From assembly GCA_047975765.1 (NCBI GenBank), contig JBKEEF010000012.1, positions 210,995 to 274,994 of the forward strand: a stretch of DNA of 64,000 bases, read 5' to 3'. The DNA comes from Alphaproteobacteria bacterium (GTDB lineage Bacteria > Pseudomonadota > Alphaproteobacteria > RF32 > CAG-239). The notes under the pieces are model-generated. The model did not search any database. It was not told the DNA's origin and was given only the letters and a program-made list of their open reading frames with translations. Shown piece after piece: positions 19,594-34,020 of the stretch. Both the position numbers and the translations under genes were made by a program. The stretch's first letter is position 1; each line of letters opens with the position of its first letter.

Positions 19594-20778
19594 ATGATGA
19601 ACAAGAAGAAGACAGGAAAAAAAATATTTTTGGTTTTAATTTTATTTGCCATTGCTTTAGGTGGATATTTTTACTTCCATGACGGTGAAGAAAAGTTCAC
19701 TTATATTACTGAAAATGTTCACAAACAAGACATTCAAAAAACAGTTAATGCAACGGGTGAAGTTCGTGCCGTTGACTTAGTCACTGTTGGTGCTCAAGCC
19801 TCTGGTAAAATTGAAAAGCTATATATTGCCATTGGTCAAGACGTCAAAAAAGGCGATTTAATTGCTCAAATTGACTCAACAACACAACAAAATGAAGTGG
19901 ATAAAATCAAGGCAAAACTAAATAGTTATGAAGCCCAACTCATTGCTGCAAATGTTTCTTATAAAGTTGCTGAGAAAAAATATAATCGCCAAAAGAAGCT
20001 ATATCAGCAAAAAGCAACATCTCAAGAAGATATGGAAAATGCTGAGGAAACCTATGAAAACGCAAAAGCTCAAATGGAACAAATTATCGCCTCTCTCAAA
20101 GAAAATAGAATTTCCCTCAGCACTGCTGAAACAAATTTAGGCTATACAAAAATCACTTCTCCACTTGATGGAACGATTGTTTCTGTTCCAGTCAAAGAAG
20201 GACAAACAGTTAATGCGGCAATGAACACACCAACAATTGTTCAAATTGCCAATCTTGATAAGATGGAAATTGTCATCGAAATTTCAGAAGGTGATATTCT
20301 CAATATCAAACCTGAAGATAAAGTGACTTATTCGATTTTAGCAAACCTAGATAAGACTTATGAAACGACACTCAAATCTATTGATCCAGGCTTAACTTCC
20401 CTCAGCAATGGAGAATATACAGAAGTCGTTTCTTCCAGTGAAGCAATTTATTATTACGGAAGACTTATTGTTGACAACCTCGATGGCGAACTCCGCATTG
20501 GTATGACCACACAAAATGTGATTTTTGTTGAAGCAGCAAAAGATGTTTTGACAATTCCAGCGACAGCAATCAAAGGCAATGGTAGTGGGAAATATGTTAA
20601 CATTCTTCTTCCAAATGGAAAAACAGAGGAAAGAAAAATCGTCACTGGTGTTTCCGATGGTTTTAATGTTGAAGTCACTGAAGGCTTAACTGAAGGTCAA
20701 AAAGTTATTGTAGCTCAACTTTCTTCTGAACAAATTTCTGAAAAAGCGACTGTTAAAAGAGGTCCAAGAGGGTTTTAG
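19594..20778 (+). CDS. macA: MacA-family membrane fusion protein
   Basis: ATGEV, VGAQASGKI, VKKGDLIAQID, NLGYTKITSPLDGT, GQTVNAAMNTP. Confidence 0.9.
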   Translation: MMNKKKTGKKIFLVLILFAIALGGYFYFHDGEEKFTYITENVHKQDIQKTVNATGEVRAVDLVTVGAQASGKIEKLYIAIGQDVKKGDLIAQIDSTTQQNEVDKIKAKLNSYEAQLIAANVSYKVAEKKYNRQKKLYQQKATSQEDMENAEETYENAKAQMEQIIASLKENRISLSTAETNLGYTKITSPLDGTIVSVPVKEGQTVNAAMNTPTIVQIANLDKMEIVIEISEGDILNIKPEDKVTYSILANLDKTYETTLKSIDPGLTSLSNGEYTEVVSSSEAIYYYGRLIVDNLDGELRIGMTTQNVIFVEAAKDVLTIPATAIKGNGSGKYVNILLPNGKTEERKIVTGVSDGFNVEVTEGLTEGQKVIVAQLSSEQISEKATVKRGPRGF

Positions 20779-20781
20779 AAA

Positions 20782-22722
20782 ATGAATATTATTGAAATCA
20801 AAAACATCAATAAGATTTTTGGAAATGAAGGTAACCAAGTTCATGCCCTTAAAAATGTCAATTTCTCAGTAGAAAAAGGGGATTTTGTTGCCATTATTGG
20901 ACAATCCGGCTCAGGAAAATCAACATTAATGAATATTATTGGCTGTTTAGATGTGCCAACTTCTGGTGAATATAAAATCAACGGTGTTGAAGTGAGCAAG
21001 ATGAATTCTGACCAATTAGCAGAACTCAGATGCCAAACCTTTGGATTTATTTTTCAAAGATATAACCTTCTTACAAACCTTAAAGCAACTGACAATGCAG
21101 CTCTTCCAGCTATTTATGCTGGTGTCGATGCTGATGAAAGAAACCATAGAGCAGAGAAAATTCTGAGTACGCTTGATTTGGCAGATAAATATAATAGTCG
21201 TCCCAATGAACTTTCTGGTGGGCAACAACAAAGAGTGAGTATTGCACGAGCTTTGATGAATGGTGGAGATATCATTTTGGCTGATGAGCCAACTGGTGCA
21301 CTGGATTCAAAAAGCGGTGAAAACGTGATGGAAATCATCAAAGAACTTCACAAAAAGGGACATACTGTCATTTTAGTAACCCACGATAAAAGCATTGCTG
21401 CGCAAGCTAGTCGAACAATTGAAATCAAAGATGGTGAAATTATTGCAGATATCAGAAGAGCAGATGATATTTATGAGATGAAAGATAAACTTAAACAAGT
21501 TGAAAGAGGAAAACTTGCACATTTCAAGTATAGCCTTATGGAAGCTTTCAATATGTCTGTTCATGCTATTATTTCTAATAAAATGCGTTCACTTTTAACG
21601 ATGCTTGGCATTATTATTGGAATTGCTTCTGTTGTCTCTGTGGTCGCTCTGGGAAATGCTTCTCAAGCAAAAATTATGGAACGAATTAATTCTATGGGCA
21701 CGAATACCATTGATATCCTTCCTGGAAAAGGGTTTGGGGATATGCGTTCTGGAAGAGTTAAATCACTAAAAGTGAGCGATTCAGATTATCTCTCCAAACA
21801 AAACTTCATTGAAAATGCAACGCCTAATGTGAATGCAAATGGCACATTGGTTTATGAAAATAGTTCTGTAACTGCACAGTTGACAGGGGTTGGAGCAGAG
21901 TTTTTTGATGTGAAAGGGAAAAAGATTTCAGAAGGAAGAATTTTCACGCAAGATGAAGCTAGAAACATGGCATCTGTTGTTGTCATTGATGACAACACAC
22001 TAAAAGAAATTTTTCCAAACAATCCAAACCCTGTCGGGGAAGTTATCATTTTCAACAAAAAACCTTTAGTGATTATTGGTGTAACTGAAAAAGATAATAG
22101 CCCTGGTCCAATGGCAGATTCAATGAAACTTTGGACACCATATACAACTGCGATGTATAAAATCAATGGCAGTAATGACATTAATACAATCACTGTTAAA
22201 ATTTCTGACAACATCAATTCCCAAGTTGCGGAAGAAAGTATTGATGAAATTCTTACGGCTCTTCATGGAAAAAAAGATTTTTTTATGATTAATACGGATA
22301 GCATTAAGCAAACGGTTGAAAGTACAACAAACACAATGAAGCTTCTCATTTCAAGCATTGCTGTTATTTCGCTTATTGTTGGTGGAATTGGTGTAATGAA
22401 TATCATGTTAGTTTCCGTCACAGAAAGAACCAGAGAAATTGGAATCCGTATGGCAATTGGAGCCAAACAAAGAGATATTTTGCAACAATTTCTCATTGAA
22501 GCAATTTTAATCTGCGTAATTGGTGGTTTTTTAGGTGTAAGTCTTTCTATTGCTTTGGGAACAGCTCTCAACAGCTTCTCTGAAAATTTTGGAATGGATT
22601 TCTCAACAGCCTCAATTATCTTAGCCCTAACTTGTTCAACAGCAATTGGTATAATCTTTGGATATATGCCAGCGAAAAATGCTTCTGAACTCAACCCTAT
22701 CGATGCTTTAGCGAGTGAATAA
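20782..22722 (+). CDS. macB: MacB-family ABC transporter (ATPase-permease fusion)
   Basis: GQSGSGKST, LSGGQQQR, ADEPTGALD, MRSLLTMLGIIIGIASV, VSVTERTREIGIRMAIGA. Confidence 0.95.
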   Translation: MNIIEIKNINKIFGNEGNQVHALKNVNFSVEKGDFVAIIGQSGSGKSTLMNIIGCLDVPTSGEYKINGVEVSKMNSDQLAELRCQTFGFIFQRYNLLTNLKATDNAALPAIYAGVDADERNHRAEKILSTLDLADKYNSRPNELSGGQQQRVSIARALMNGGDIILADEPTGALDSKSGENVMEIIKELHKKGHTVILVTHDKSIAAQASRTIEIKDGEIIADIRRADDIYEMKDKLKQVERGKLAHFKYSLMEAFNMSVHAIISNKMRSLLTMLGIIIGIASVVSVVALGNASQAKIMERINSMGTNTIDILPGKGFGDMRSGRVKSLKVSDSDYLSKQNFIENATPNVNANGTLVYENSSVTAQLTGVGAEFFDVKGKKISEGRIFTQDEARNMASVVVIDDNTLKEIFPNNPNPVGEVIIFNKKPLVIIGVTEKDNSPGPMADSMKLWTPYTTAMYKINGSNDINTITVKISDNINSQVAEESIDEILTALHGKKDFFMINTDSIKQTVESTTNTMKLLISSIAVISLIVGGIGVMNIMLVSVTERTREIGIRMAIGAKQRDILQQFLIEAILICVIGGFLGVSLSIALGTALNSFSENFGMDFSTASIILALTCSTAIGIIFGYMPAKNASELNPIDALASE

Positions 22723-24089
22723 TGATGAAAAATATTTTTATAAAATGTCTCTTAATATGTTTGCTTTTGAGCAGTTGCTCAAGTGCTAAATATGACAAAC
22801 CAACTTTATCTGAAGAACTTGGTCATGACGAAAATATTTCTCAAAATTTTAACATTCAAAAAGACTGGTGGAAAGGATACAACAATAAGGAACTTAATAA
22901 CCTTATCGAACTTGCATTGAAGAACAATCCTGATAATTTGAAGGCAGCACTCCAAATTGAGAAAGAGCTTTATAATTTGAATTTAGCAACCACAGACTTA
23001 TTTCCAACACTTGGTGGAAACCTCTCAACCTCTTCTCAAAGAAGAATTGATAAGCATGACAATGCTTCAAAGAACTTTTCAGGAGAAGCAAGCTTGAACT
23101 ATGAACTCGATTTGTATGGGAAAATAAGAGATGCAAAGGCGGCTCAAGAATTTGAATATGAGGCCACAATTTTGGATAAAGAAGCAGCAGAACTCGCTCT
23201 TGTTAATAACGTAGTTGATTTATATTTTAACCTCTCATATCTCAACGATTCAATCCAAATAAGCAAACAAAATGTTGAAAACTATACCAAAATTTATAAG
23301 ATTGTGAATGCTAAATTTCAATCAGGTCAAATTGATGAACTTGACGTCACAAAAGCCAGACAAAGCTTGGTTTCTGAAAAAATTAAACTTCTTGATTTGG
23401 AAACACAATTCAGTGACCTTGAAAGAAGTTTGAAAAACATTGTAAACCTCAAACCAAATGAACCTCTCAACTTGAGTTATATTCCTGTTCTCAAACAAGA
23501 AACCCTCGTTGTTGATTTGAATGTTCCTCTTGCTGTTTTGTCTGAAAGACCAGACTTAAAAGCAAGCCAACTTCGCTTAGAAAAAGCTTTCAAAAATATG
23601 GAAATCCAAGACAAGAACTGGTATCCAAATGTTTCGCTTAGAGGGGTTCTTGGATCAAGTTCCAATAAAGCAAGAACTACATTCGATTTTCCATATATCT
23701 TAGGAAGTGTTGGGGTCGATTTACCTTTTCTCGATTGGAATAGAGTAAAAAATAACATCAAAATTTCTGAAGCTGATTATCAAATTGAGTTAGTTAACTT
23801 CAAAGATACCTTCACACAAGCACTGAATGAAACAGCATATTATTCTTATGCTTATGACAAAACGTCTGACTCTTTAAGTTTTGTTGAACAAAAATATCAA
23901 GACAGTCAAAAACAGACCAAATATTATCAAGAAAGATACGACACTGGCAAAATTGAACTCAAAGATTTATTAGATGCAATAAACAGTGAAAATTCAGCAC
24001 AAATTGAACTCATCAAGCAGAAATATATGGTTGTCAAATATGAAGGCTATGTCTACAAATCCCTCGCTGGAAAATATAGCAAAATTTAA
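22722..24089 (+). CDS. TolC/NodT-family outer-membrane efflux lipoprotein
   Basis: Lipobox LSSC, WWKGYNNKELNNLI, YELDLYG, ERPDL; translationally coupled to macB. Confidence 0.9.
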   Translation: MMKNIFIKCLLICLLLSSCSSAKYDKPTLSEELGHDENISQNFNIQKDWWKGYNNKELNNLIELALKNNPDNLKAALQIEKELYNLNLATTDLFPTLGGNLSTSSQRRIDKHDNASKNFSGEASLNYELDLYGKIRDAKAAQEFEYEATILDKEAAELALVNNVVDLYFNLSYLNDSIQISKQNVENYTKIYKIVNAKFQSGQIDELDVTKARQSLVSEKIKLLDLETQFSDLERSLKNIVNLKPNEPLNLSYIPVLKQETLVVDLNVPLAVLSERPDLKASQLRLEKAFKNMEIQDKNWYPNVSLRGVLGSSSNKARTTFDFPYILGSVGVDLPFLDWNRVKNNIKISEADYQIELVNFKDTFTQALNETAYYSYAYDKTSDSLSFVEQKYQDSQKQTKYYQERYDTGKIELKDLLDAINSENSAQIELIKQKYMVVKYEGYVYKSLAGKYSKI

Positions 24090-24598
24090 TTGTTAATCTC
24101 AGAAGCTTCATAATAAGAACCTAAAAAGACAAGGATGATAGCCAAAATGAACAATAAAATTGCCCAATTATTGACTCCTCCTAGTTTTGCCATCTTTTCT
24201 TTGACTTCCTCAAAATTGCTCTGTCCATAACCAGATTTTTCTGCATCTTTGAAAAACTTTTCAGTGTAAAAAGGGAAAGCCGTGACAGCACAAAAAGCAG
24301 AAAAAGCAATATTCACATATTTAGGAGGAAGAGGAATGTATTCGAAAAAAAACGTTGCTACAAAAATTGCGAGTGCAATAAAATACATTTTTCTATATAT
24401 AAAATAGAACATTCCACCAAAAAATGCCCAAACATTAAAAAGACCACTCATAACTTTTCCATTTTTATAATTGTTTTTTATGGCTTTGAAATGCTTTTCA
24501 ACTTGTTTTGGTTTTCCAAGATGAACTTCCAAAAGCTGTCTTAGTTCATCGTCATTAGAAATTAATTGTTCTCTCACCTTATTTGTCGCATTAATCAT
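24086..24598 (-). CDS. DUF2628 family membrane protein
   Basis: FNVWAFFGGMFYFIYRKMY motif; C-terminal GG..W TM helix. Confidence 0.8.
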   Translation of the reverse strand: MINATNKVREQLISNDDELRQLLEVHLGKPKQVEKHFKAIKNNYKNGKVMSGLFNVWAFFGGMFYFIYRKMYFIALAIFVATFFFEYIPLPPKYVNIAFSAFCAVTAFPFYTEKFFKDAEKSGYGQSNFEEVKEKMAKLGGVNNWAILLFILAIILVFLGSYYEASEINN

Positions 24599-27098: not shown

Positions 27099-27281
27099 AT
27101 GAACTTATTAAGCAAATTAAAAGAAATCAATAAATATCTTGATAAGCTTCATAATAACAAAGTTTACATTGGTGATGTTATTCCTAATACATGGAAAAAA
27201 ATAGGAAAAGCCTTTCTTATTTTTGCACTAATTATTTTAGGTTTAGTCGTTTTCACAATTATTTTATCTTTTTTCTTTTAA
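27099..27281 (+). CDS. Small membrane protein (60 aa)
   Basis: SD aagga, C-terminal TM helix, converges on terminator at 27298. Confidence 0.55.
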   Translation: MNLLSKLKEINKYLDKLHNNKVYIGDVIPNTWKKIGKAFLIFALIILGLVVFTIILSFFF

Positions 27282-27297
27282 GTATCTTTATTAAGAT

Positions 27298-27333
27298 AAA
27301 ACCCCAGCCAAATCAAAACTAGGGTTGTTTTTA
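27298..27333. terminator. Bidirectional terminator candidate
   Basis: aaaccccag/ctagggttgttttt imperfect hairpin between convergent genes. Confidence 0.5.
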
Positions 27334-27339
27334 TATATT

Positions 27340-27633
27340 CTAACTCAGAAAGTCTTTGATAATTTCACCATAAATATCCCAATGTTGCCATATGAGAATT
27401 AAAGAAATTAATAAAATAGGTAGAGTAGAGATAAAAGAATAAAAGTCCTCATGCTTATAAATTTTATTCCACACTCCTAGTGATACAACAAAAGGAATCA
27501 AAAGAACAGTAGCTATAACAACGTAAAACAAAATAAAAGTTTTTGTAATCGCAATTTCATTTTGGACACTTAATATAAGTGCTACCACAAAAAAAACTAT
27601 AATATAATGTATAAAAAGTAGTATTCTTCTCAT
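27340..27633 (-). CDS. Small 3-TM membrane protein (candidate immunity protein)
   Basis: ATG at 27633 one base after the upstream stop; three hydrophobic segments. Confidence 0.65.
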   Translation of the reverse strand: MRRILLFIHYIIVFFVVALILSVQNEIAITKTFILFYVVIATVLLIPFVVSLGVWNKIYKHEDFYSFISTLPILLISLILIWQHWDIYGEIIKDFLS

Positions 27634-27634
27634 T

Positions 27635-27976
27635 TTATTTATCATTGCAAAATTTATCAAAATTACAACTTGAAGAAAGCATCACACCTCCAGATTTTTC
27701 ACAATATTCCTTGCTGATAGTCAAAATATTAAAATTACATATTTTATATTCTTCATTCCACAAAGCACCAACTTTTTGACAAAGCTCCTTTGTAACAACA
27801 CAAGGCTCTTTCCAACACGGAGGGCAAAATGGAAGTTCCGTTCCTTCTTTACAAATTGTATCCTCAGCACAATCATCTATTGGATTTAAATATCCATAAA
27901 TGAATAATCCAGAAAAAAATAAGAACACAAATAAAAAGAAAATATTTTCTTTATTCACTACAATCTCTTTTTTCAT
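27635..27976 (-). CDS. Membrane-anchored Cys-rich protein (candidate immunity protein)
   Basis: N-terminal TM, then 10 Cys; repeat TKELCQKVG / SKEYCEKSG. Confidence 0.75.
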   Translation of the reverse strand: MKKEIVVNKENIFFLFVFLFFSGLFIYGYLNPIDDCAEDTICKEGTELPFCPPCWKEPCVVTKELCQKVGALWNEEYKICNFNILTISKEYCEKSGGVMLSSSCNFDKFCNDK

Positions 27977-28008
27977 TATTAACCTTTCTGTGTTTATTTT
28001 TGTGATAT

Positions 28009-28611
28009 CTAATCAATAGGCTTTTTTAATAAATCTAAACAATTAGTATCTTTTTTATGTCCATACATAGCTCCTTTAGCATTATTAGACATATCTTTTA
28101 TACTATCAATATAAATATTTCTCCTTCCTCCATATTTTTTAGGGGTTATATTTTTTCTTCCTAAATCAAGAGCTTCTTTTCCTAAAGCAGCAAAAGCTCC
28201 AGTAAATTTCATTTTTCCATCTCCTTTTGCTGGAAGGCAACTTATATATTGATGTTTATTTACGTCAGATACACCTTTCAAAGCATTCACTCTCTTGACC
28301 TCATCATACCAATCTTTAACATTTTCTTTATAGGGTTTTTCTTTAGATACTATTGCATTATTCTTCCTCACTTCATTAATTTTTTTCTCCGTTTCTCCAC
28401 CTGGTTTAATTACTTCATCTACCTTAAGCTTATTGTCTTTTTGAAAACTATTAATTCCTTTGAACAAACCTTCATCCGTGAACTTATTCATTCCAACTTT
28501 TTCATCTACTTTATAATATCCCATATTATTTAGTTCTTTTTTTGTATTCAGAACGTCATCTCCGTCAATATCATCTGTCGTTCTTGAAATCTCTTTTTTC
28601 AACGTTAACAT
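28009..28611 (-). CDS. Peptidoglycan-binding (PG_binding_1-like) protein with SAA-like C-terminal domain; candidate polymorphic toxin
   Basis: DDVLNTKKELNNMGYY, GINSFQKDNKLKVDEVIKPGGET; C-terminal SD...H, KE..D, DS.KD..NN..G; SD ggag. Confidence 0.75.
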   Translation of the reverse strand: MLTLKKEISRTTDDIDGDDVLNTKKELNNMGYYKVDEKVGMNKFTDEGLFKGINSFQKDNKLKVDEVIKPGGETEKKINEVRKNNAIVSKEKPYKENVKDWYDEVKRVNALKGVSDVNKHQYISCLPAKGDGKMKFTGAFAALGKEALDLGRKNITPKKYGGRRNIYIDSIKDMSNNAKGAMYGHKKDTNCLDLLKKPID

Positions 28612-28642
28612 TTTATTTTCTCCATTTTAAATATTTAAAACT

Positions 28643-28738
28643 AAAAAAGAGACACTAGCAGAACCAGTGACTCTCAAATTAAATTTGTTATAACAAAAAA
28701 AGAAGCGTATCTCACAGATGCACTTCTCCCTAGTAACT
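28643..28738 (-). ncRNA. Putative small RNA / leader with two U-tailed hairpins
   Basis: Downstream of TTGACA-17-TATATA; hairpin 28701-28727, AU-rich linker, hairpin 28649-28675; no ORF. Confidence 0.45.
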
Positions 28739-28848: not shown

Positions 28849-28925
28849 TGGGGCGAAAGACGGGGCTCGAACCCGCGACAACCGGTACCACAAACCGGGG
28901 CTCTACCAACTGAGCTACTTCCGCC
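28849..28925 (-). tRNA. tRNA-His (GTG) with G-1, C73 and encoded CCA
   Basis: Reverse complement GGCGGAAG TAGCTCAGTTGGTAGAGC...CCGGT TTGTGGT ACCGG...GGTTCGAGCCC CTTTCGC C CCA; all stems pair. Confidence 0.98.
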
Positions 28926-31361: not shown

Positions 31362-32981
31362 ATGTTTAAAACTGTTGCTACAACGCCATACGGCGACCAA
31401 AAAATGGGAACCGCCGGTCTTCGCAAAAAATCTAAAGTCTGGATGCAGCCAAACTATGTTGAAAACTTTGTTCAAAGCATTTTCAATAGCATTGGCGGTG
31501 TTGAAGGTCACACTTATATCGTTGGGGGTGACGGTCGTTTTTATAATAAAGTTATGGTTCAAAAAATTATCAAACTTGCTGCTGGTAATGGTGTTAAAAA
31601 ACTTATCATTGGTCAAAATGGTTTGATGTCTACACCAATTTCTTCTAAACTCATTATCACACACAAGACTGACGGAAGTTTGGTCTTGACAGCTTCTCAC
31701 AATCCTGGTGGTGAAAATGGCGATGCTGGCATCAAATATGCAACAGCATCTGGTGGCCAAGCTCCAAAACAAATCACTGATGCAATTTATAAAAACACCA
31801 AGGAAATTACGGAATATAAAATTTATGATGAAGGCGACATTGACCTTTCAAAGCTTGGTCATGTGAAATATGGCAAAATGGAAATTGAAATTGTCGATAC
31901 AATTGATGACTATGTTGCAATGTGTAAAGAATTATTTGATTTTGCCTCTTTGAAAAAACTTTTCCAAAGCGGTTTCAGAATCAAATTTGACTCTATGAAT
32001 GCCGTGACTGGTCCATATGCTGTTAAGATTTTTGAAGAAATTTTAGGGGCGGAAAAAGGTAGTGTAATGAATGCTGTTCCTCAACCAGACTTTGGTGGAC
32101 TTCATCCAGACCCAAATCTTAAATATGCGAAAGAACTGATTGAGATTTTGAATGGCAAAAATGCACCTGATTTTGGTGCGGCAACTGACGGAGACGGTGA
32201 CCGTTATATGATTTTGGGTCAAAACTTTTTTGTAACCCCAAGCGACAGCCTTGCGATCATCACAGACAATTACAAACTCATTCCTGCTTATGAAAAAGGG
32301 ATTTTCGGAGTTGCTAAATCTGCGGCGACATCAACAGCTGTAGCTCGTGTTGCAAAGGCTCATAACATTGGTTATTACGAAACGCCAACAGGTTGGAAGT
32401 TCTTTGTGAACTTGATGGATTCAAACAGAATCACTTTTTGTGGTGAAGAAAGCTTCGGCGCTGGTTCAAGTCATATCAGAGAAAAAGACGGCATTTGGGC
32501 AATTCTTTTCTGGCTTAGCATTATTGCAAAGACAGGCAAATCTGTTGAAGAAATTGTGGTTGACCACTGGAAAAAATATGGTCGTAGCTACTATATGCGT
32601 TTTGACTTTGAAGAAATAGATTCTGAAATTGCCAACAAATTGATGCAAGATTTAGAAACAACACTTGCTGGTTTGAAGGGTAAAACTTTCGGGAGTTATG
32701 AAGTTGAAAGCGCTGGTGCTTTTGTTTATGACGATCCTGTTGACGGAAGTTCGACTAAAGACGGTTTTGTTATTCACCTCACCGATGGTTCAAGAATTGT
32801 ATATCGTCTTTCTGGAACAGGTTCAGTTGGTGCAACACTCCGTGTTTATATTGAAAAACTGGAAACAAAGAAAATCGAAGAAGATGCACGTCAAATGGTT
32901 GATGAGCTTTATAAATTGGCAGCGCAAATTGCTGAAGTTGAGAAAAGAACAGGAAAAAAAGAAGCAGATGTTACAACTTAA
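31362..32981 (+). CDS. pgm: Phosphoglucomutase
   Basis: DQKMGTAGLRKK, LTASHNPGG (phospho-Ser), ATDGDGDR, CGEESFG; ATG at 31362 with SD gagga. Confidence 0.97.
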   Translation: MFKTVATTPYGDQKMGTAGLRKKSKVWMQPNYVENFVQSIFNSIGGVEGHTYIVGGDGRFYNKVMVQKIIKLAAGNGVKKLIIGQNGLMSTPISSKLIITHKTDGSLVLTASHNPGGENGDAGIKYATASGGQAPKQITDAIYKNTKEITEYKIYDEGDIDLSKLGHVKYGKMEIEIVDTIDDYVAMCKELFDFASLKKLFQSGFRIKFDSMNAVTGPYAVKIFEEILGAEKGSVMNAVPQPDFGGLHPDPNLKYAKELIEILNGKNAPDFGAATDGDGDRYMILGQNFFVTPSDSLAIITDNYKLIPAYEKGIFGVAKSAATSTAVARVAKAHNIGYYETPTGWKFFVNLMDSNRITFCGEESFGAGSSHIREKDGIWAILFWLSIIAKTGKSVEEIVVDHWKKYGRSYYMRFDFEEIDSEIANKLMQDLETTLAGLKGKTFGSYEVESAGAFVYDDPVDGSSTKDGFVIHLTDGSRIVYRLSGTGSVGATLRVYIEKLETKKIEEDARQMVDELYKLAAQIAEVEKRTGKKEADVTT

Positions 32982-34020
32982 GAAGACATTTCTCTATTCA
33001 CTTGTTTTAGCATTGCTACTTTGTGGCAATGCTAAAGCTGGTTTATATGGCGTAGATAGTGTTAATCCTTATTTGCCAGAAGAAACCCCTCAAACGACAG
33101 GATTTTCTCCAAAGCATATTGCAAATTATAGAAGTTTGATGAGAGATAATATCAACTTTCTTTCTCGATATGCCAAAGCAAAAAGCCCTCAATTTCAAAT
33201 TATTCTTCATGGAGACGACACTCTTTTTAATATTGGAGAAGTTGAATATTTGACATCTCAATATAATAACATCAAAAACAAAACAATGAATAATGAGAAG
33301 ACTTCATTGTTGGCTTCTGAAAATATCGATGCCATTTCTGTAGTTGGCGTTTCTTGCGACAACAAAGAAATTCCACAAATCATCAAAGATAAAAAACAAA
33401 CTCCAATTTATATTGAACATTGCTCAAACGAAAAAGAAATTGATAGAGCAATAGAATTTTCCATTGAAAACAATGCACCAGCTTATCTTTTTTCAAATCG
33501 TGAAAATGCTTTCAAAAACATTAAAGGCGAGCTTATCATTAAGGAAAATTCAAGAAATATTTTCACAACGAAAGATGCTAAAAACATTTCCTTCTTACTT
33601 GATGATGGACAATTTGCAAGCAAGTATGAAATGATAGAAGACATGAGCAAAACAAACTATGACATCATTGTGATAAAGCCTCTTTTTCACAATAAAACAC
33701 GCTTTACAAAAGCTGAAATTGAGAGTATGAAATTCAAGAAAAATGGAGCAAAAAGACTTATCATTGCTGAGATGAACCTAACAGAAGCTAACCCTATTGA
33801 CTATTTCTGGCAAGAAGACTGGCAATTAGGAAGTCCAAGTTGGTTGAAGAGAAAGTCTTTTGTTGAAGAAAATTCTGTTATCACAGAATATTGGCAACCT
33901 CAATGGAGAGAAGTTTTATCAAAACATTTCAACAGCATTATGAATTCTGGCTTTGATGGTGTGTGGTTCACTGGAACAGAAAACTATCAATATTTTGAAA
34001 AACAAACCCCTGTGATTTAG
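32968..34020 (+). CDS. GH114/TM1410-MJ1477-like (polygalactosaminidase-like) protein, probably degenerate
   Basis: Signal peptide from ATG 32968; YDIIVI, KRLIIA, YFWQEDW, P.WL, EYWQPQW, GFDGVW. Confidence 0.7.
   Translation: MLQLKKTFLYSLVLALLLCGNAKAGLYGVDSVNPYLPEETPQTTGFSPKHIANYRSLMRDNINFLSRYAKAKSPQFQIILHGDDTLFNIGEVEYLTSQYNNIKNKTMNNEKTSLLASENIDAISVVGVSCDNKEIPQIIKDKKQTPIYIEHCSNEKEIDRAIEFSIENNAPAYLFSNRENAFKNIKGELIIKENSRNIFTTKDAKNISFLLDDGQFASKYEMIEDMSKTNYDIIVIKPLFHNKTRFTKAEIESMKFKKNGAKRLIIAEMNLTEANPIDYFWQEDWQLGSPSWLKRKSFVEENSVITEYWQPQWREVLSKHFNSIMNSGFDGVWFTGTENYQYFEKQTPVI

Follow-up and report, generated by a model that had tools for sequence, protein, structure and literature searches.

A candidate toxin-immunity cassette with a peptidoglycan-binding leader and a serum-amyloid-A-like C-terminal domain next to tRNA-His in an alphaproteobacterial genome

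A compact three-gene cassette is located in an AT-rich island next to tRNA-His

The DNA analysed here, referred to as the window, is a stretch of 64,000 nucleotides from an alphaproteobacterial genome (assembly GCA_047975765.1, contig JBKEEF010000012.1), and the element in question is a cassette of three genes on the 3' side of tRNA-His, which encodes a putative toxin of 200 amino acids (aa) and two small membrane proteins (Table 1). Together with a short convergent open reading frame (ORF), the cassette occupies an AT-rich block of 1.5 kb (27099-28611) with a GC content of 0.277 as compared to 0.347 for the whole window, and no other non-overlapping stretch of equal size in the window reaches a GC content this low. 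An earlier reading of the letters and their ORFs without database searches, henceforth the sequence-only reading, had pointed out this AT-richer block beside tRNA-His, and its further description of the locus was also borne out. The 200-aa protein lacks a signal peptide and possesses a distinct C-terminal domain, as determined by a hydropathy scan and an AlphaFold2 (AF2) model, its N-terminus is related to PG_binding_1, and the two small membrane proteins encoded in a tight operon, the terminator and the convergent 60-aa membrane ORF were all recovered.

The start codon (ATG) of the putative toxin gene is preceded at a distance of about 9 nt by a GGAG sequence. The gene for a 113-aa membrane protein begins 33 nt past the toxin gene, and its stop codon is overlapped by the start of the third gene (ATGATAAATAA), which encodes a protein with three transmembrane (TM) segments, hereafter 3-TM protein. 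Between tRNA-His and the toxin start, a second hairpin with a T-tail (28653-28669, minus strand) and an imperfect direct repeat of 32 nt (28619-28703) are present, which could represent a read-through barrier or a regulatory element.

Table 1. Features of the cassette and its immediate surroundings; positions refer to the window
Feature	Position	Strand	Basis and remarks
tRNA-His (GTG)	28849-28924	-	ARAGORN and Rfam; landmark, upstream edge of the island
Putative toxin gene, 200 aa: leader with peptidoglycan-binding domain (PGBD), short linker, C-terminal tip similar to serum amyloid A (SAA)	28009-28611	-	ORF and Shine-Dalgarno (SD) sequence
PGBD leader, aa 1-85, PG_binding_1-like three-helix domain	28357-28611	-	Pfam, alignments, AF2/Foldseek
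Tip domain, aa ~94-200, four helices and a short fifth	28009-28332	-	Family search, hhalign, Foldseek
Candidate cognate immunity gene, 113 aa, TM anchor and Cys-rich domain	27635-27976	-	Homologs in L018 and L053
3-TM membrane protein, 101 aa (ATG) or 106 aa (upstream TTG)	27340-27645/27660	-	ORF, hydropathy
Terminator-like hairpin closing the three-gene operon	27300-27326	-	10-bp stem, 4 G-C pairs, T-rich tail
Convergent 60-aa ORF, C-terminal TM segment	27099-27281	+	Called gene P0110, singleton cluster

The region around the cassette was annotated from 19.6 to 34 kb of the window. On its flanks, the cassette is accompanied by housekeeping genes (ABC-F, YaiI, a PBP5-type carboxypeptidase, MipZ and phosphoglucomutase) and by those of a MacAB-TolC-type pump. 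MipZ and the name of the nearest relative indicate an alphaproteobacterium of low GC content. A repeat of the tRNA-His 3' end, i.e., an att-like or direct repeat, was sought at the far edge of the island and was not found there. The same three-gene organisation recurs at unrelated chromosomal sites, namely between YaiI and tRNA-His in the window, RNR and SecB in locus L001, and RNase T and Nth in locus L052, and the toxins of L001 and L052, which have the same gene order, share 42-53% identity with that of the window. All four proteins encoded in the block form singleton clusters in a collection of 15 billion proteins, and none of them matched a PADLOC defence family. Relatives of the 60-aa ORF, which has a GC content of 0.224, were not found in the related loci. 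Its membership in the system is unsupported and it is not counted as part of it, despite its position within the AT-rich block.

The leader is a peptidoglycan-binding domain that carries interchangeable C-terminal tips

The N-terminus of the 200-aa protein is hydrophilic, and the hydropathy scan did not reveal any TM segment in the protein. The AF2 model has a predicted local distance difference test (pLDDT) score of 94.1, with leader helices at aa 17-29, 47-59 and 73-85, each modelled at pLDDT >90. According to Foldseek, the fold of the leader is that of peptidoglycan (PG)-binding domains, among them the N-domain of SleB (6tci; target-normalised template-modelling score (TMt) 0.83, root-mean-square deviation (rmsd) 2.4), CtpB, 1lbu and 5tv7; the matches include the PG-binding domains of phiKZ gp144 (3bkh) and a Zn DD-peptidase. 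The match of the leader itself to PG_binding_1 (aa 17-65) remained below the Pfam threshold, whereas relatives with the same leader exceeded it (P0005, 31.8 bits; P0006, 33.4 bits; L027, 48.8 bits). The signature of the window leader is FQKDNKLKVDxxxKPGGETE; alignment with seven database relatives yielded 21 invariant positions over the first ~85 residues and the common signature FQKDN.LKVD...P.GET. Matches of the window protein in BFVD arose via the PGBD alone.

A scan of one genome per species returned 41 loci, of which about 30 represent true relatives with the domain at the extreme N-terminus and without a signal peptide. Nearly all of them belong to the Alphaproteobacteria (Magnetospirillum with several per genome, Magnetovibrio, Terasakiella, Curvivirga, Micavibrio and Rickettsiales-like metagenome-assembled genomes (MAGs)). 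To our sequence comparison, the leader proved to be modular: it was found with at least seven different C-termini. The clearest exchange occurs in P0003 (MFV0626127.1), in which a leader 89% identical to that of the window is followed by a T4-lysozyme-like tip; the profile of this tip gave matches to T4 gp5 and T4 lysozyme (E ~5e-5). Another relative, P0005, bears a classical SAA tip (Pfam SAA, E=2.5e-17), and further relatives possess GH24, GH108 plus PG_binding_3, SLT, or a short Cys4 zinc-ribbon-like tail. M15-like, ParB-like and proline-rich tails on some relatives were judged by eye alone. PG hydrolases (GH24, GH108, SLT) constitute the majority of the identifiable tips. The check that the sequence-only reading had proposed, i.e., whether homologs with the same leader vary at the C-terminus, was therefore answered in favour of modularity by the lysozyme, SAA, GH108, SLT and ribbon tips.

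Some features of individual leader relatives were recorded in addition. A recurrent protein of ~115 aa combines the PGBD leader with the tail C-x2-C-G-A-x-H-G-G-V-[YF]-x5-C-x2-C (L006, L008, L009, L021, L046, and P0006/P0007 of L004); its hosts are Magnetospirillum, Curvivirga and phage-like contigs, and its gene often adjoins those of a conserved ~136-aa protein and a ~260-aa P-loop ATPase-like protein. The PGBD-led genes of L019, L022, L027, L030 and L004 carry SAA, lysozyme, ParB-like or ribbon-like tips and have genes nearby that were read by eye as tail-tube-like, suggesting that some family members are virion-associated or carried by phages. In L002 (258-1138), the PGBD-led gene of P0004 appears to be split into two overlapping frames of 174 and 158 aa, owing either to a frameshift or to faulty assembly; behind it, genes of the 3-TM and Cys-motif types known from the window are located.

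The C-terminal tip is read as a divergent SAA-like Lipocone domain

With the C-terminal domain as the sole query, a word-indexed homology search gave no match, and neither did comparison of the tip alone to Pfam, NCBIfam and the PDB. When 1.84 billion representatives were searched exhaustively with HMMER, a tip family of 98 clusters emerged at E<=1e-3 (51 at E<=1e-10), and the domain is C-terminal in all of them. No Pfam model covers this family; Pfam SAA matches one of 42 family members at E=0.013. The family consensus reads sD.nKHqy.SC.g..gG ... KE..D...K ... YgG..gi..Ds.KD..NN..G...G ... C..LL, and the conserved positions correspond to D116, K119, H120, C125, K145, E146, D149, D169, D173, N177, G180 and C191 of the window protein, which keeps every catalytic and Cys position that is invariant in the family.

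The Lipocone superfamily was defined by Burroughs, Nicastro and Aravind (eLife 2025, PMC12419801) in a computational catalogue, and its pocket consists of a His in helix 2 (H2), a Glu in H3 with an acidic residue close to the end of this helix, and an Asp/Asn within sNxxGR, the H4 motif of the SAA-Wnt clade. When a deep tip profile (42 aligned family members) was compared to seven classical bacterial SAA tips from related loci, hhalign returned a probability of 93.3% (E=2.8e-7) over 97 columns. These seven classical tips in turn match vertebrate SAA structures at E ~1e-21. The alignment superposes D116-x3-H120 on the D-x3-H of SAA, K145-E146-x2-D149 on (K/R)E-x2-D, and D169-S-x2-D173-x3-N177-x2-G180 on DS.xD...N..G, and the C-terminal Cys is aligned as well. 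Residues H120, E146, D149, D173 and N177-x2-G180, which are invariant or nearly so in the tip family, are thereby aligned to the pocket positions of the prokaryotic SAA domains (prok-SAA). An earlier impression that the catalytic His had been lost was rejected: MAFFT and a shallow hhalign comparison had aligned the Cys residues and set Ser124 opposite the catalytic His, whereas in the deep-profile alignment His120 falls on the SAA His and every spacing is preserved.

In the AF2 model, whose input alignment excluded classical SAA sequences, the tip is soluble and free of TM segments, and it forms helices at aa 94-110, 116-128, 132-155 and 163-185 plus a short one at 193-196. The sole compact helical-bundle PDB matches returned by Foldseek were mouse SAA3 and human SAA1 (TMt 0.40-0.53), at E-values that are not significant by themselves. 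Because of the hhalign alignment, the pocket residues and the modelled bundle, we take the tip to be a divergent, SAA-like Lipocone of the SAW clade. The signature peptides of the tip were absent from all 37 supplementary files of PMC12419801, the copies of which may be incomplete, and the peptide DKYFHCKAN occurs there 25 times; the branch to which the window tip belongs seems to be absent from the published prok-SAA sequence lists.

The tip also occurs on other leaders. Among 96 fetched representatives of the tip family, six possess the PGBD leader, one the C-terminal part of a MuF head-morphogenesis domain (P0009), ten share a YGV[DN]H[SN]GF leader and three share 'EGIDYIL', the remaining ones having other or truncated N-termini. 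An assignment of many tip carriers as Microviridae DNA-pilot proteins was dropped, as the PHROG 'pilot' and 'head' matches all came from the MuF-like P0009. In L055 (3203-6504; chromosome of an alphaproteobacterial MAG), a protein with a window-type tip (P0070 = MBR4106234.1) heads a toxin island and is followed in this order by a polytopic membrane protein of 205 aa, a protein of 116 aa, a protein with a Tlde1 domain (L,D-transpeptidase effector) and a membrane protein of 116 aa. The Tlde1-domain protein repeats 41 aa of the leader of the tip protein (66% identity, E=3e-15), an arrangement that, judged by sequence, is typical of alternative-tip cassettes, and the window-type tip appears to behave as a toxin module there. 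The leader in L055 (YGV[DN]H[SN]GF ... NYGFG ... NIENMQNNTTP) is unannotated and occurs in ~10 clusters of the tip family.

A cysteine-rich membrane protein accompanies the SAA-like tip

The 113-aa protein possesses one N-terminal TM helix (aa 9-30) and ten Cys residues, and its ectodomain contains two 'helix + hairpin' units built on C-x3-G-x-W-x5-C. The AF2 model (pLDDT 76) shows short strands, a helix (63-68), a hairpin (72-81) and a second helix-hairpin unit. In the catalogue of Burroughs et al., Imm-SAA is a TM-anchored protein encoded downstream of prok-SAA, often in tandem, and is described as one alpha-helix and four beta-strands with four absolutely conserved cysteines (PMC12419801). 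Compared by description, the model is compatible with Imm-SAA, not clearly identical to it.

Homologs of the 113-aa protein were found next to both kinds of SAA-like tips. In L018 (5233-7202; sheep-colon alphaproteobacterial MAG, JAFWAG010000032), four tandem homologs of 92-101 aa (IKD08_02950/55/65 and one more) are grouped around one classical PGBD-SAA gene, which looks like an array of immunity genes. In L053, a phage-like contig, each side of a gene for a window-type tip on an unrelated leader is occupied by a full-length homolog (33% identity over 103 aa, E=3e-17; 32% over 87 aa, E=3e-14), and in both of them the Cys residues all align. Six Cys residues are conserved among the proteins of the window, L018 and L053, four in L001 and two in the shortest relatives. 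A tally of all other SAA-tipped genes with enough sequence revealed the minimal motif (a TM segment, then C..G.W....C) directly 3' of the gene in L001, L005, L007, L019, L022, L023 (two copies) and L052. In total, a Cys-motif TM gene was present at 10 of the 12 loci with SAA-like tips and at 2 of the 26 loci with other tips (Fisher p=8e-6); one of the two SAA-like-tip loci without it, L055, has polytopic partners. Relatives with PG hydrolase tips are accompanied by adjacent, mutually unrelated genes encoding N-terminal signal peptides (with a lipobox in L031), and these partners resemble cognate periplasmic immunity proteins, as would be expected. The distribution supports the view that the Cys-rich protein follows the tip and not the leader, and its association with the tip makes the 113-aa protein a candidate cognate immunity protein of the Imm-SAA-like type.

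The 3-TM protein has TM segments at about aa 9, 35 and 72. The cassettes of L001, L002 and L052 likewise contain, besides toxin and Cys-rich genes, one for a 3-TM protein of 90-118 aa, and homology among these partners was not significant (16-22% identity, E=0.88). The 3-TM protein did not match any PHROG holin family. Candidate roles are those of a second immunity factor or of an export or holin-like accessory. The sequence-only reading had put forward both downstream proteins as immunity candidates; this holds at family level for the 113-aa protein, which tracks the tip, whereas for the 3-TM protein the position is conserved and homology is not demonstrable.

Relationship to known systems

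The sequence-only reading had also considered the cassette undescribed. This view had to be given up, as the polymorphic and allied toxins listed in PMC12419801 (Fig. 5-source data 1) include 'PGBD fused to prok-SAA, neighbour TM+Imm-SAA, Pseudomonadota', an architecture catalogued computationally. Like the window cassette, these systems combine an N-terminal PGBD with a soluble SAA domain of four helices (plus one) bearing the His/Glu/Asp/Asn-x2-Gly residues, followed directly downstream by a Cys-rich membrane-anchored protein that is sometimes repeated, and they occur sporadically in Pseudomonadota. A prok-SAA of the catalogue, MCC6598473.1, matches the tip of the related locus L023. In contrast to classical prok-SAA, the window tip falls into a separate sequence cluster (sD.nKHqy.SC ... 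KE..D ... YGG ... DS.KD..NN..G ... C), the Cys of its helix 2 is displaced by one turn, the loop joining H3 and H4 has ~11 additional residues and the Arg of the motif is missing. Unlike the catalogued systems, the window cassette has an additional conserved third gene, that of the 3-TM protein. The window cassette is a divergent member of the computationally defined class of PGBD-led, SAA-type Lipocones with a Cys-rich membrane immunity protein.

New with respect to this class are the tip family of 98 clusters, which lies outside Pfam and, as far as searchable, outside the published lists, and the evidence that the Cys-rich protein stays with the tip even where the leaders differ. In addition, the cassette provides a small, soluble and confidently modelled example (pLDDT 94) with the catalytic pattern H120, E146, D149, D173 and N177 and an adjacent candidate inhibitor, which makes the predicted SAA-type enzymology directly testable.

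Among polymorphic toxins, TelC of Streptococcus intermedius is the only Lipocone characterised experimentally, and it cuts lipid II outside the cytoplasm (PMC12419801). As far as the TelC-TipC pair (Whitney et al., 2017) is summarised in PMC12419801, it would share with the window cassette a Lipocone toxin directed at an extracytoplasmic carrier lipid (lipid II for TelC), and TipC, a membrane or lipoprotein immunity factor facing the compartment of TelC, may be likened to the 113-aa protein. TelC differs in belonging to another Lipocone clade, in its Gram-positive host, its LXG domain and its type VII delivery, and TipC is unrelated to the Cys-rich protein. YfiM and VanZ belong to the Lipocone superfamily, in which the tip is placed here; they depend on Lys/His, Glu and Asp residues and act on lipid II-type substrates. 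YfiM cuts lipid-linked oligosaccharide pyrophosphates, residues K28, H31, E72 and D91 are essential, and its overexpression is lytic, resulting in osmotic lysis (10.64898/2026.09.16.752124); VanZ has been reported to hydrolyse lipid II according to the introduction of the same preprint. Both differ from the tip as integral-membrane housekeeping or resistance enzymes of other clades, whereas the tip is soluble and part of a mobile, toxin-type cassette.

Vertebrate SAA (4ip8, 4ip9, 4q5g, 6pxz) forms the same helical bundle as the tip (88-99 columns in Foldseek, rmsd 3.6-6.1), and alignments read by eye show a common spacing of D-x3-H, a (K/R)E pair 26 residues past the His, and DS[LI].D...N..G; when the window family and SAA were compared directly by sequence search, no significant match was obtained. 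In contrast to the window protein, vertebrate SAA has neither a PGBD nor a Cys pair nor an immunity partner; it is an acute-phase protein that is secreted and associates with lipoproteins. Both the bacterial SAA-like toxins and animal SAA have been predicted to be enzymes acting on lipid head groups (PMC12419801).

Two further groups resemble the window cassette in layout. The endolysins of phages infecting Gram-negative bacteria, such as phiKZ gp144, are also PGBD-first, signal-less and encoded near small membrane proteins; the C-terminal domain of the window protein, however, did not match any glycosidase, amidase or peptidase, and the cassette lacks a phage context and any holin or spanin match and has a partner gene that co-varies with the tip. 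Type VI effectors acting in the periplasm, such as Tlde1 with Tldi1, are likewise signal-less, directed at the wall or its precursors, and encoded next to a secreted or membrane-anchored immunity protein, and Tae/Tai and Tge/Tgi are further effector-immunity pairs of this kind. Unlike these systems, the window protein has a PGBD as leader, and no Hcp, VgrG, PAAR or other marker was found in the Pfam-annotated related loci or at 19.6-34 kb of the window.

The sequence-only reading had assumed a conserved leader, a variable C-terminal toxin and a target in the envelope, and tip swaps and the occurrence of the tip on unrelated leaders provide comparative support for this. According to the definition of polymorphic toxins by Zhang et al. 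(2012), as given in PMC12419801, a secretion, trafficking or processing module is part of such proteins, and in the window protein just the PGBD precedes the tip. Variable tips, a tip on unrelated leaders, an alternative-tip cassette and a tip-linked adjacent gene were all found. Because no secretion or trafficking module is recognisable, the system was filed as an 'allied' toxin cassette, in line with the 2025 catalogue.

Proposed function and alternative explanations

Based on the comparative evidence, we consider it probable that the three genes were acquired horizontally and form a small toxin-immunity cassette of the PGBD-led Lipocone type that is directed against other bacteria. The effector would be the 200-aa protein, held on the murein sacculus by its PGBD. 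The tip would cut the phosphate-linked head group off a carrier lipid at the periplasmic face of the membrane, most likely lipid II or another precursor linked to undecaprenyl pyrophosphate, a substrate proposed because of the analogy with the characterised Lipocones TelC, YfiM and VanZ, and this cleavage would starve cell-wall synthesis. The conserved cysteine pair C125 and C191 suggests that the tip is active only in an oxidising compartment, i.e., the periplasm. The 113-aa protein would be anchored in the inner membrane and expose its disulfide-rich domain to the periplasm, binding the tip there and blocking it. A conserved accessory function is proposed for the 3-TM protein, which would act as a second immunity factor of the membrane or assist in the release of the signal-less toxin. 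If the proposed activity is true, the tip would constitute another protein route to block the supply of cell-wall precursors.

Several observations weigh against this proposal. No recognised secretion or trafficking domain is present in the toxin, and no secretion system through which such a PGBD-led, signal-less effector could leave the producing cell was identified among the genes annotated around the cassette (19.6-34 kb). No prok-SAA toxin has been assayed to date (PMC12419801). The assignment of the leader involves a PG_binding_1 (PF01471) match of 20.7 bits (E=4.9e-4), under the Pfam gathering threshold of 23 bits. All Foldseek E-values are >0.1. For the tip, a two-sequence tip profile reached only 11% against prok-SAA in hhalign, the deep tip profile did not find SAA among the PDB sequences by hmmsearch, the window sequence alone did not reach the Pfam SAA threshold, and the H4 motif (NNAKGA) has Ala in place of the Arg of sNxxGR. 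The model of the immunity candidate is of moderate confidence and has no clean fold match to the published Imm-SAA description. The Cys-rich gene also occurs beside a lysozyme-tipped gene (L027) and beside P0004 (L002), and it is missing at the SAA-like-tip locus L050, which has a 5-TM partner only. Finally, leader relatives within podovirus-like structural modules of prophages or on viral contigs would fit a role in phage lysis or phage entry.

The last point leads to an alternative explanation, in which the cassette is a phage-derived module for lysis or for breaching the envelope. The 200-aa protein would then be an endolysin-like or virion enzyme whose muralytic domain was swapped for a lipid-II-cutting one, the 3-TM protein a holin through which the signal-less enzyme gains access to the periplasm, and the Cys-rich TM protein an antiholin-like regulator or a factor protecting the lysogen; in this chromosome, the module would either be left over or have been domesticated as an autolysis switch for the release of vesicles, particles or cell contents. 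Modular endolysins of phages infecting Gram-negative bacteria indeed have as their standard layout an N-terminal PGBD, a catalytic domain at the C-terminus and no signal peptide, the leader matched phiKZ gp144 in Foldseek, and the sole PHROG matches were endolysin families, obtained via the PGBD. The size of ~100 aa and the topology of the 3-TM protein are those of class I holins, but none of the partner proteins matched a holin or spanin family. Most identifiable tips on the leader are PG hydrolases (GH24, GH108, SLT), yet these relatives are paired with signal-peptide proteins and not with holins. Leader relatives occur in podovirus-like prophages amid genes for portal, scaffold and capsid (L004, L019, L022, L027, L030; the labels come from reading the sequences by eye and one Phage_Bbp19 match) and on the IMG/VR contigs L046 and L047, and the tip is also present on the phage-like contig L053 and on the MuF protein; in contrast, the window cassette has no flanking phage gene, the same three genes occupy housekeeping sites in L001 and L052, and the leader was found in only 4 of 2.9 million viral contigs. 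The osmotic lysis upon overexpression of YfiM would agree with a lytic function. On the other hand, the Cys-rich gene tracks the type of tip and, in the manner of immunity genes, forms arrays with two to four paralogs each, and the tip shares the locus L055 with a Tlde1 alternative-tip cassette. We regard a lysis module as a serious but unlikely alternative, and the two explanations overlap; phage-borne toxins with immunity of the lysogen are a recognised theme, e.g., MuF. Rather unlikely, in our estimate, is a reading in which the three genes of PGBD-led cassettes form an autonomous weapon, the 3-TM protein being a holin-like gate that frees the toxin without a secretion system or phage particle, and the tip representing a separate family of lipid-II-cutting Lipocones. 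If true, this would be the simplest system showing SAA-type domains, and by extension vertebrate SAA, as enzymes.

It is quite improbable that the cassette is merely an orphan, i.e., the decaying remnant of a larger toxin or phage locus from which at most the immunity gene is kept against the toxins of neighbours. The isolated island of 1.5 kb, the lack of delivery machinery among the genes annotated around it, and the four proteins being singletons would be in line with decay, signs of which are seen in related loci (truncated leaders in L014 and L032, and a possible frameshift in L002). Against this, the three genes are intact and tightly coupled, with an SD sequence before and a terminator after them, the toxin retains all family-invariant catalytic and Cys positions, and the three-gene order is kept in L001 and L052 at the toxin identities given above. 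An enzyme serving the cell's own envelope, namely a sacculus-bound phosphoesterase of lipid-linked oligosaccharides that acts with membrane partners in carrier-lipid recycling or quality control, appears highly improbable. Lipid II or lipid-linked oligosaccharides of the cell itself are indeed the substrates of YfiM and VanZ, and a PGBD would place such an enzyme at the wall, but the protein has neither a signal peptide nor a TM segment to reach the periplasm. Moreover, a housekeeping role would hardly agree with an AT-rich island of sporadic occurrence at differing loci, with an 89%-identical leader bearing a swapped tip, with the links to toxin cassettes and phage modules, or with a tip family that is soluble, always C-terminal and attached to variable leaders.

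Neighbouring genes and further observations

About 3 kb off the cassette, the window contains a complete tripartite efflux operon (19594-24089, plus strand) encoding an HlyD-type adaptor, a MacB-type ABC permease and an OEP/TolC-type channel. This MacAB-TolC-like pump was considered as an export route for the toxin and dropped, as it has no link to the cassette and is absent from the related loci. Pfam yielded no match at E<=1e-5 for two ORFs in the vicinity, one of 170 aa (24086-24598, minus strand) and one of 440 aa (32698-34020, plus strand). Because ~280 nt of the latter coincide with the end of the phosphoglucomutase ORF, the true start of the 440-aa ORF is probably located further downstream. 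In L050 (1-5200), the region 5' of another gene encoding a PGBD and a window-type tip contains Peptidase_M78, a resolvase, DNA methylase fragments and a Rep-like protein, a mobile-element patch that fits horizontal movement of the cassette.

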